Shown piece after piece: positions 17,711 through 18,655 of a stretch of 27,202 nucleotides of DNA (its first letter is position 1; each line of letters begins with the position of its first letter). The notes under the pieces are model-generated. The model saw only the letters and a program-made list of their open reading frames with translations, was not told where the DNA came from and made no database searches. The position numbers and the translations under genes are program-made. Origin of the DNA: a virus (Duplodnaviria > Heunggongvirae > Uroviricota > Caudoviricetes); the IMG/VR virus record IMGVR_UViG_2541047882_000005, one strand, 5' to 3'.

Positions 17711-18022
17711 AATACGATACCTGCGTCATAATTGATTATTTGACGTGGTTTGATGGCCTCCACGCACGTTGTGATATGTAGATGATAATCATTATCACTT
17801 TACGGGTCCTTTCCGGTGATCCGACAGGTTACGGGGCGGCGACCTCGCGGGTTTTCGCTATTTATGAAAATTTTCCGGTTTAAGGTGTTTCCGTTCTTCT
17901 TCGTCGTAACTTAATGTTTTTATTTAAAATACCCCCTGAAAAGAAAGGAAACGACAGGTGCTGAAAGCGGGCTTTTTGGCCTTTGTCGTTTCCTTTCTCT
18001 GTTTTTGTCCGTGGAATGAACA
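17711..18022. other. Lambda-type cos site (cosQ side, cosN with 12-nt cohesive end GGGCGGCGACCT at 17834-17845, cosB side up to Nu1 start)
   Basis: Sequence matches my recollection of the lambda genome termini nearly base for base (..CCGACAGGTTACG GGGCGGCGACCT CGCGGGTTTTCGCTATTTATGAAAATTTTCCGG..) and directly precedes Nu1. Confidence 0.8.
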
Positions 18023-18655
18023 ATGGAAGTCAACAAAAAGCAGCTGGCTGACATTTTCGGTGCGAGTATCCGTACCATTCAGAACTGGCAGGAACAGGGA
18101 ATGCCCGTTCTGCGAGGCGGTGGCAAGGGTAATGAGGTGCTTTATGATTCTGCCGCCGTCATAAAATGGTATGCCGAAAGGGATGCTGAAATTGAGAACG
18201 AAAAGCTGCGCCGGGAAGTTGAAGAACTGCGGCAGGCCAGCGAGACAGATCTCCAGCCAGGGACTATTGAGTACGAACGCCATCGACTTACGCGTGCGCA
18301 GGCCGACGCACAGGAGCTGAAAAATGCCAGAGACTCCGCTGAAGTGGTGGAAACCGCATTCTGTACTTTCGTGCTGTCGCGGATCGCAGGTGAAATTGCC
18401 AGTATTCTCGACGGGATCCCCCTGTCGGTGCAGCGGCGTTTTCCGGAACTGGAAAACCGACATGTTGATTTCCTGAAACGGGATATCATCAAAGCCATGA
18501 ACAAAGCAGCCGCGCTGGATGAACTGATAAAGGGGCATCCGTCTACGGAAAGCCGGTGGCCAGCATGCCACGTAAGCGAAACAAAAACGGGGTTTACCTT
18601 ACCGAAATTGGTACGGATACCGCGAAAGAGCAGATTTATAACCGCTTCACACTGA
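18023..18655 (+). pseudogene. Terminase small subunit Nu1, lambda-like for 169 codons then fused to out-of-frame sequence
   Basis: MEVNKKQLADIFGASIRTIQNWQEQGMPVLRGGGKGNEVLYDSAAVIKWYAERD.. matches lambda Nu1 through ..AALDELI (18529); the last 41 residues are unrelated (reading the A C-terminal region out of frame). Confidence 0.8.

Follow-up and report, generated by a model that had tools for sequence, protein, structure and literature searches.

A lambda-type cos site, intact by sequence, beside a C-terminally altered Nu1 gene in a rare deletion allele of Qin, a cryptic prophage

The Qin variant and its decayed late region

The window considered here is the whole stretch of DNA that was analysed, 27,202 nucleotides in length, and it is 100% identical to a region of Escherichia coli TB06053 that is sited between rspB and a truncated ydfJ. 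This insertion site and a characteristic gene set define the Qin cryptic prophage, and both are found at this locus. The genes annotated by PGAP before cos are flxA, ydfV, relBE, hokD, rem, ydfU, ydfT (Q), cspF, cspB, essD, ydfR, rrrQ, rzpQ, cspI, gnsB, ydfO and ynfO, and farther on past cos lie tfaQ, pinQ and ydfK. Window positions 7031-18535 (11.5 kb) are 99.87% identical to the Qin prophage of K-12 MG1655, in which nohA is the gene that follows cos. The element is bounded by 11-bp direct repeats (TTATGGATTTC) and measures 25.95 kb; the right attachment repeat occupies 25917-25927, and the left end falls ~18-28 bp outside the start of the window. Positions 1-7030 carry an intact integrase and excisionase, unlike K-12 Qin, where intQ is interrupted by IS2. 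The dicC-dicA-dicF-dicB region of K-12 Qin is missing from this segment and is replaced by a pseudogenised exoribonuclease-domain gene, a methyltransferase and an ISNCY transposase fragment. The features of the locus are collected in Table 1.

Table 1. Features of the Qin variant and of its cos region (window coordinates; strand given where it applies)
Feature	Position	Strand	Basis or remark
Qin cryptic prophage variant, int and xis intact	1..25927		TB06053 match, K-12 Qin match, flanking repeats
ynfO (YlcI/YnfO family, DUF3950), final gene ahead of cos	17401..17634	-	Pfam PF13132, PGAP
cosQ, GGGTCCT, -30 to -24 relative to the cohesive end	17804..17810	+	Identical to lambda; invariant in 12 of 12 aligned cos regions
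cosN, 12-nt cohesive-end sequence GGGCGGCGACCT	17834..17845	+	Identical to lambda
cosB R3 (lambda bp 50-65), AGGTGTTTCCGTTCTT	17883..17898	+	One change, bp 53 C>T
R3-R2 interval containing IHF site I1	17899..17941	+	Two substitutions, bp 73 and bp 102
cosB R2, inverted (lambda bp 109-124)	17942..17957	-	Unchanged by alignment
cosB R1	17983..17998	+	First base alone departs from lambda (C>T)
Nu1' (NohA-type TerS remnant), 210 aa	18023..18655	+	Pfam; PGAP 'terminase small subunit' WP_077770029.1
Deletion junction 1, 2-nt 'TA' microhomology	18528..18531		Lambda bp ~697-2177 (~1.48 kb) lost
gpA (TerL) remnant ORF, residues 499-641, 143 aa	18556..18987	+	Longest remaining gpA ORF
W (head-tail joining) gene, intact	18984..19190	+	PGAP, lambda alignment
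Remaining decayed late operon: B', C'/Nu3', G', T, H', J'	19187..23025	+	Lambda alignment; PGAP pseudogene calls

The open reading frame that follows cos, Nu1', is a chimera. Residues 1-169 (18023-18529) are those of lambda Nu1 save for A75T and L132I, both of which are also present in K-12 NohA, and the Pfam Phage_Nu1 match spans residues 1-164. The 41 residues that follow (170-210) are gene A read out of frame, and they replace native residues 170-181, the last 12 of the C-terminal part to which TerL binding maps; the protein is thus not a full-length Nu1. The junction point lies at 18529/18530, where Nu1 codon 169 is joined out of frame to gene A codon 490. Gene A itself is reduced to codons 491-641 and retains neither the ATPase domain nor the Nu1-binding N-terminus of a functional TerL, and the Pfam GpA_nuclease match of the remnant is to the end of the profile alone (positions 196-286 of 294). 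A reading made from the sequence only had described 169 lambda-like Nu1 codons fused to unrelated sequence and a gpA cut to its last ~140 codons; both descriptions agree with the alignments, with the refinement that the fused part is out-of-frame gene A and that the surviving gpA frame has 143 codons.

The late region as a whole consists of five lambda segments with 94-98% identity (lambda coordinates -361..702, 2176..3500, 5293..5625, 9779..10686 and 15668..17608) that are joined at four deletion junctions. Beyond the Nu1'-A' junction, these lie at ~19852 (B'-C'), 20182-20184 (C'-G') and 21085-21089 (H'-J'), with overlaps of 1-5 nt. The four junctions account between them for the loss of ~12.4 kb of lambda-like DNA, which contained the late genes D, E, FI, FII, Z, U and V, most of H, as well as M, L, K and I. 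The arrangement is best explained by an illegitimate deletion of ~1.48 kb that fused Nu1 codon 169 to gene A codon 490, and by three more deletions that took the capsid decoration and major capsid genes, most of the tail, and most of the portal/protease genes.

The closest known system is the cos-nohA locus of K-12 Qin (b1548 nohA, ynfO, ydfO), which occupies the same rspB/ydfJ site and has the same genes; the 11.5 kb that it shares with the window includes cosQ and cosN, and there too the C-terminus of Nu1 has been replaced and TerL is missing. The two alleles differ in how this came about. In K-12, lambda Nu1 continues up to codon 176 and then passes directly into stfQ, whereas the window joins codon 169 to A codon 490 and, unlike K-12 Qin, retains fragments of A', W, B', C', G', T, H' and J'. 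Since the junctions are different, the deletions were independent events in sister lineages, and the window allele is by this comparison an earlier, less-reduced stage of Qin decay than that of K-12.

Related deletions were noted elsewhere. In E. coli ECJXMCRH7, another decaying lambda-like prophage carries an internally deleted gene A (1,476 bp as against 1,926 bp; 7144-8619 of the locus sequence) that adjoins a full-length nohD and cos, and several further genomes have other deletions within the Nu1-A interval.

The locus is very probably the cos-nohA end of Qin, a fossil lambda-family prophage in ydfJ, present here as a rare deletion allele that arose by ordinary decay. The Qin cos-nohA locus is already known and annotated, and the window looks like a rare deletion variant of it, neither a new satellite nor a defence system. 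The sequence-only reading had the anatomy right, with a cos site intact by sequence, an altered Nu1 C-terminus and no packaging motor, but it had not recognised the known locus behind these features.

The cos site compared with lambda and its relatives

Aligned by BLAST with bp -361 to +702 of lambda (phage DE3 record), window positions 17472-18535 are 98.1% identical, and a base-by-base alignment finds zero differences from lambda over ~17498-17885 (bp -335 to +52), an interval that includes cosQ and cosN. The 12-nt cohesive end occurs as a single copy in the window, on the plus strand, where 0.06 matches would be expected by chance at no more than one mismatch. The heptamer GGGTCCT that constitutes cosQ corresponds to lambda 48473-48479. 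In an alignment of 12 cos regions, comprising the window, K-12 Qin, K-12 DLP12, lambda and 8 sequenced lambda-like phages, cosN with its flanks (17825-17885) is invariant in all 12.

Five substitutions distinguish the cosB of the window from that of lambda: bp 53 C>T, 73 A>G, 102 T>C, 137 A>G and 150 C>T, in the numbering of lambda DE3, relative to which NC_001416 has one additional G near bp 138. Every variant base has a counterpart in one or more viable phages (2H10, phiSTEC1575-Stx2k, PhiR26_1 and PhiR42_1 among them), and 2H10 and phiSTEC1575-Stx2k each combine four of the five. The T at bp 53 is common to DLP12, 2H10 and phiSTEC1575-Stx2k, the T at the first base of R1 to PhiR26_1, 2H10 and phiSTEC1575-Stx2k, and the substitutions at bp 73 and bp 102 to most of the viable phages compared. 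The exact cosB haplotype of the window was found in no sequenced viable phage, the best match being lambda at 98.5%. None of the 12 aligned sequences departs from the others in the cores of R3, R2 or R1. Within R3 (bp 50-65), TerS contacts bp 55-63, and bp 56, 58 and 59 are genetically critical (Murialdo and Feiss 2022, PMC9026076); the bp 53 change lies within the 16-bp R3 site, yet outside the TerS-contacted base pairs, in which none of the five cosB changes falls. From cosN to the Nu1 ATG there are no indels relative to lambda DE3.

The extra G of NC_001416 at bp 138 (GCGAGGCTTTTT) is absent from phage DE3, from the window and from the other aligned phages, and because of it the coordinates of the two lambda records are offset by one downstream of that position.

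The elements that characterise a lambda-type cos are all present: cosN with conserved flanks, a 7-bp cosQ ~24-30 bp upstream of the nick site, and a cosB ordered R3-I1-R2-R1 with R2 inverted, with the correct spacing between cosN and R3, and with the TerS gene starting at ~bp 190. By every sequence criterion, the site is intact. The claim that the DNA reproduces the cosQ-cosN-cosB arrangement of lambda with the 12-nt cohesive end at 17834-17845 thus stands on alignment with lambda, and when the site is scored for substitutions, cosN and the cores of R1-R3 are unchanged and both changes in the I1 interval occur in viable phages.

The site is intact by sequence because decay has proceeded by large deletions that spared cos, and because point divergence from lambda amounts to only ~1-2%. 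The chance that ~7 independent deletion events would all avoid cos and Nu1 codons 1-169 corresponds to a probability of ~0.07, a value that supports no claim of avoidance. No indication was found that selection maintains cos.

Probable exchange between Qin and lambda-like phages at cos

The differences between the window and K-12 Qin are not evenly distributed. There are 15 over the shared 11.5 kb, and 10 of them fall within 280 bp to the right of cosN (17886-18165), in a patch that runs from cosB R3 to Nu1 codon 48 (binomial P ~2e-13); two of the other five are at the deletion junction and three in the 10.85 kb upstream. This patch of 10 substitutions in cosB and the 5′-end of Nu1 is a further respect in which K-12 Qin differs from the window. 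To the right of cosN, the K-12 Qin allele is 100% identical over 371 bp to the viable phage PhiR42_1; to the left of cosN, PhiR42_1 departs from Qin at several sites. The alignments thus place a mosaic boundary at, or very near, cosN. A boundary in this position suggests, and is consistent with, repeated exchange between Qin and the pool of lambda-like phages, in either direction.

Gene conversion from DLP12 was considered as a source of the K-12 Qin cosB changes and was rejected, in that DLP12 has the lambda/window state at all 6 of the K-12-specific sites.

The 388 bp at 17498-17885 are exactly those of lambda, while the neighbouring Nu1 coding region differs by ~1.4% and viable lambda-like phages are otherwise 94-98% identical across cos. 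Such identity suggests a recent exchange between lambda and the Qin lineage.

Exchange of this kind has precedents. Lambda qin111, described in 1983 by Espion and colleagues, is reportedly a recombinant with the late-regulation and lysis region from Qin, and is said to have provided the original definition of Qin. The DLP12 cos-nohD-aaaD locus resembles the window in belonging to a prophage that cannot be induced and in having a lambda-type cos beside a Nu1 homologue and a shortened gene A; it differs in encoding a full-length, 181-aa Nu1 that is functional in lambda, and in having 10 differing sites within 80 bp to the left of cosN. The cos patch of DLP12 is a documented recombination hot spot for infecting lambda. 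Recombination between lambda and DLP12 in the R-Rz-cos-nu1-A' patch was ~100-fold above that in the tested stf/tfa regions of Rac and Qin, 10 of 19 junctions adjoined cos, the nu1 gene of DLP12 was functional in lambda, and the authors proposed that cuts at the cos sites of lambda and DLP12 both stimulate exchange (De Paepe 2014, PMC3945230).

A similar sequence of events may apply to the window. A terminase of lambda specificity, supplied by an infecting or induced phage, would bind R3 and R2 with IHF and would nick cosN. The realistic outcome would be a chromosomal double-strand end that favours exchange with the phage, and such exchange is the known route by which lambda acquires cos-nu1-lysis DNA from DLP12 and Qin. 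At most, there might additionally be abortive packaging of downstream DNA from the single cos.

Packaging, interference and retention as alternative readings

The last of these outcomes can be put more strongly, as packaging in situ from one cos, in which a helper terminase would package a headful rightwards from the chromosomal cos in the manner of the lambda 'doc' particles or of lateral transduction. The cargo would comprise the tail remnants, pinQ, ydfJ, dcp, marRAB, lsr and hipBA, and the orientation fits, with cosB and Nu1 facing ydfJ, marRAB, lsr and hipBA. Defective one-cos lambda particles from unexcised prophages are a classical observation. In lambda, initiation of packaging needs cosN and cosB, and termination needs a downstream cosQ and cosN (PMC4669245); the two elements that suffice for initiation are thus present here. 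However, lambda heads are improperly completed without a terminating cos, so that the infectious yield is expected to be very low, and nothing in the present data indicates that such packaging occurs. We give this reading a small chance.

Packaging in trans had also been proposed in the sequence-only reading in the form of cosmid- or satellite-like behaviour, according to which the island would excise, be packaged from its own cos by the terminase and capsids of a lambda-family helper, and be transferred. One part of this proposal survives. The sequence of cos and the int and xis genes are all intact, and there is a precedent in Sp4 of E. coli O157 Sakai, which is packaged without an intact terminase, probably by means of the Sp14 terminase acting on an identical cos (PMC2669165). 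Recognition of the window cos by the terminase of a lambda-type helper is plausible on these grounds, and the Qin variant may still excise, given its intact int and xis.

The other part, transfer as a cosmid or satellite, is unsupported by the structure of the element. Stable lambda virions need ~78-105% of the genome length between two cos sites, and the element, at 25.95 kb, is ~53% of lambda, roughly half a headful. A cosmid-like unit would have two cos sites in the same orientation ~38-51 kb apart, or would form a concatemer of suitable unit size, whereas the element has a single cosN. No second cosN (at no more than one mismatch) was found in the window, in the 20 kb upstream or in the 60 kb downstream in the direction of packaging, and packaging within that distance would thus encounter no terminating cosN. 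Moreover, genes for replication, a repressor or an anti-repressor are absent from the PGAP annotation of the element, which therefore has neither a source of concatemers nor a means of responding to a helper. By megablast, the A 3′-end/W segment is single-copy in TB06053, which means that this strain has no resident lambda-type helper, and the Nu1'-A' junction sequence is missing from the IMG/VR viral contigs.

Comparison with elements that are mobilised by helpers leads in the same direction. Sp4 resembles the window in keeping a lambda-like cos while its own terminase is defective (Asadulghani 2009, PMC2669165), but it is near full length, undergoes regional replication from a neighbouring prophage and has a matching terminase from a co-resident prophage, none of which applies to the window element. 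Cos-type PICIs of Enterobacteria are likewise chromosomal islands with a lambda-like cosN, and they depend on the TerS and TerL of the helper. PICIs differ in that they carry a cosB of their own, encode an Rpp protein instead of TerS, possess genes for replication and for sensing the helper, and are of a packageable size. The window element has lambda's own cosB with Nu1, now a TerS pseudogene, as the adjacent gene, instead of rpp beside an island-specific cosB; according to the PGAP annotation it also has no replication module and no helper-responsive regulation. Satellite-like transfer of the Qin variant is thus unlikely, and the full course of excision, packaging and transfer by a helper we regard as very improbable. 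Moreover, the two ideas behind the sequence-only reading have both been published already, recombination between lambda and DLP12 by De Paepe (2014) and packaging in trans in O157 by Asadulghani (2009).

The distribution of the cos region bears on whether it might be kept for the benefit of the host. Among 5,426 complete E. coli genomes, 4,592 (85%) contain a 411-bp segment that comprises cosN, cosB and the 5′-end of Nu1, at 8,819 places in total; in 3,966 genomes its coverage is at least 80%. Flanks of equal length are found at fewer places, with 3,876 for ydfO on the left and 4,547 for the A 3′-end/W segment on the right, and from these counts roughly half of the copies of the cos-Nu1 5′ segment lack a matching A 3′-end/W segment, K-12 nohA and nohD being examples. 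The ~2-fold excess over the flanks could be a hint of preferential retention; it is explained equally well by two old remnants (Qin and DLP12) that have descended vertically, and by mosaic flanks that fall below the megablast threshold. The Nu1'-A' junction is rare, being present in five of the 5,426 complete E. coli genomes, and it was not found in GTDB species representatives. In two of the five carriers (300709 and WS4437A-1), the match to the window starts only at 17970, inside cosB. In 300709 an IS66-family element (ISCro1-like; 1303-3999 of the locus sequence, equivalent to window ~17970-17978) separates R2 from R1 and is accompanied by the target-site duplication GGCTTTTTG. This insertion argues against a strong constraint on a contiguous cosB-Nu1'. 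That cos and Nu1' are kept because they benefit the host, either as a decoy for terminase combined with a poisoning TerS or as a fixed start from which the mar-lsr-hipBA region is mobilised, is in our judgement highly improbable; if this reading were true, the ~2-fold excess of the cos-Nu1 5′ segment would reflect selection and not shared descent.

The sequence-only reading had further suggested that the altered Nu1 could interfere with the terminase of a superinfecting phage. That Nu1' is such an anti-phage protein, a truncated TerS that would poison terminase by binding cosB or by co-oligomerising with the TerS of the phage, is likewise highly improbable. In favour of the idea, residues 1-169 retain the winged-HTH domain and the central oligomerisation region, TerL binding is a function of the Nu1 C-terminus and is weakened by loss of the last 30 residues, and the Rpp proteins of PICIs block helpers through TerS binding. 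Against it, the loss amounts to just 12 native residues, which may leave TerL binding in place. A consensus scan found no promoter upstream of Nu1', so that the gene would have to be expressed from the Q-dependent late transcription of Qin itself. Two of the five carriers have cos and Nu1' separated by an IS66 element, and the K-12 and DLP12 homologues act as ordinary nu1 alleles, with that of DLP12 supporting lambda growth. Most likely, Nu1' is an inert pseudogene product.

Collectively, these comparisons return to the decay of Qin by deletion, with exchange at cos, as the preferred account of the locus. Most E. coli genomes harbour cryptic lambdoid prophages in which cos and a Nu1 homologue survive, and these are known recombination partners of infecting lambda-like phages. 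Within this population, the window allele is a record of a stage of Qin decay that precedes that of K-12, and the patch of differences that starts at cosN suggests that the Qin lineage and the phage pool have gone on exchanging DNA at cos.
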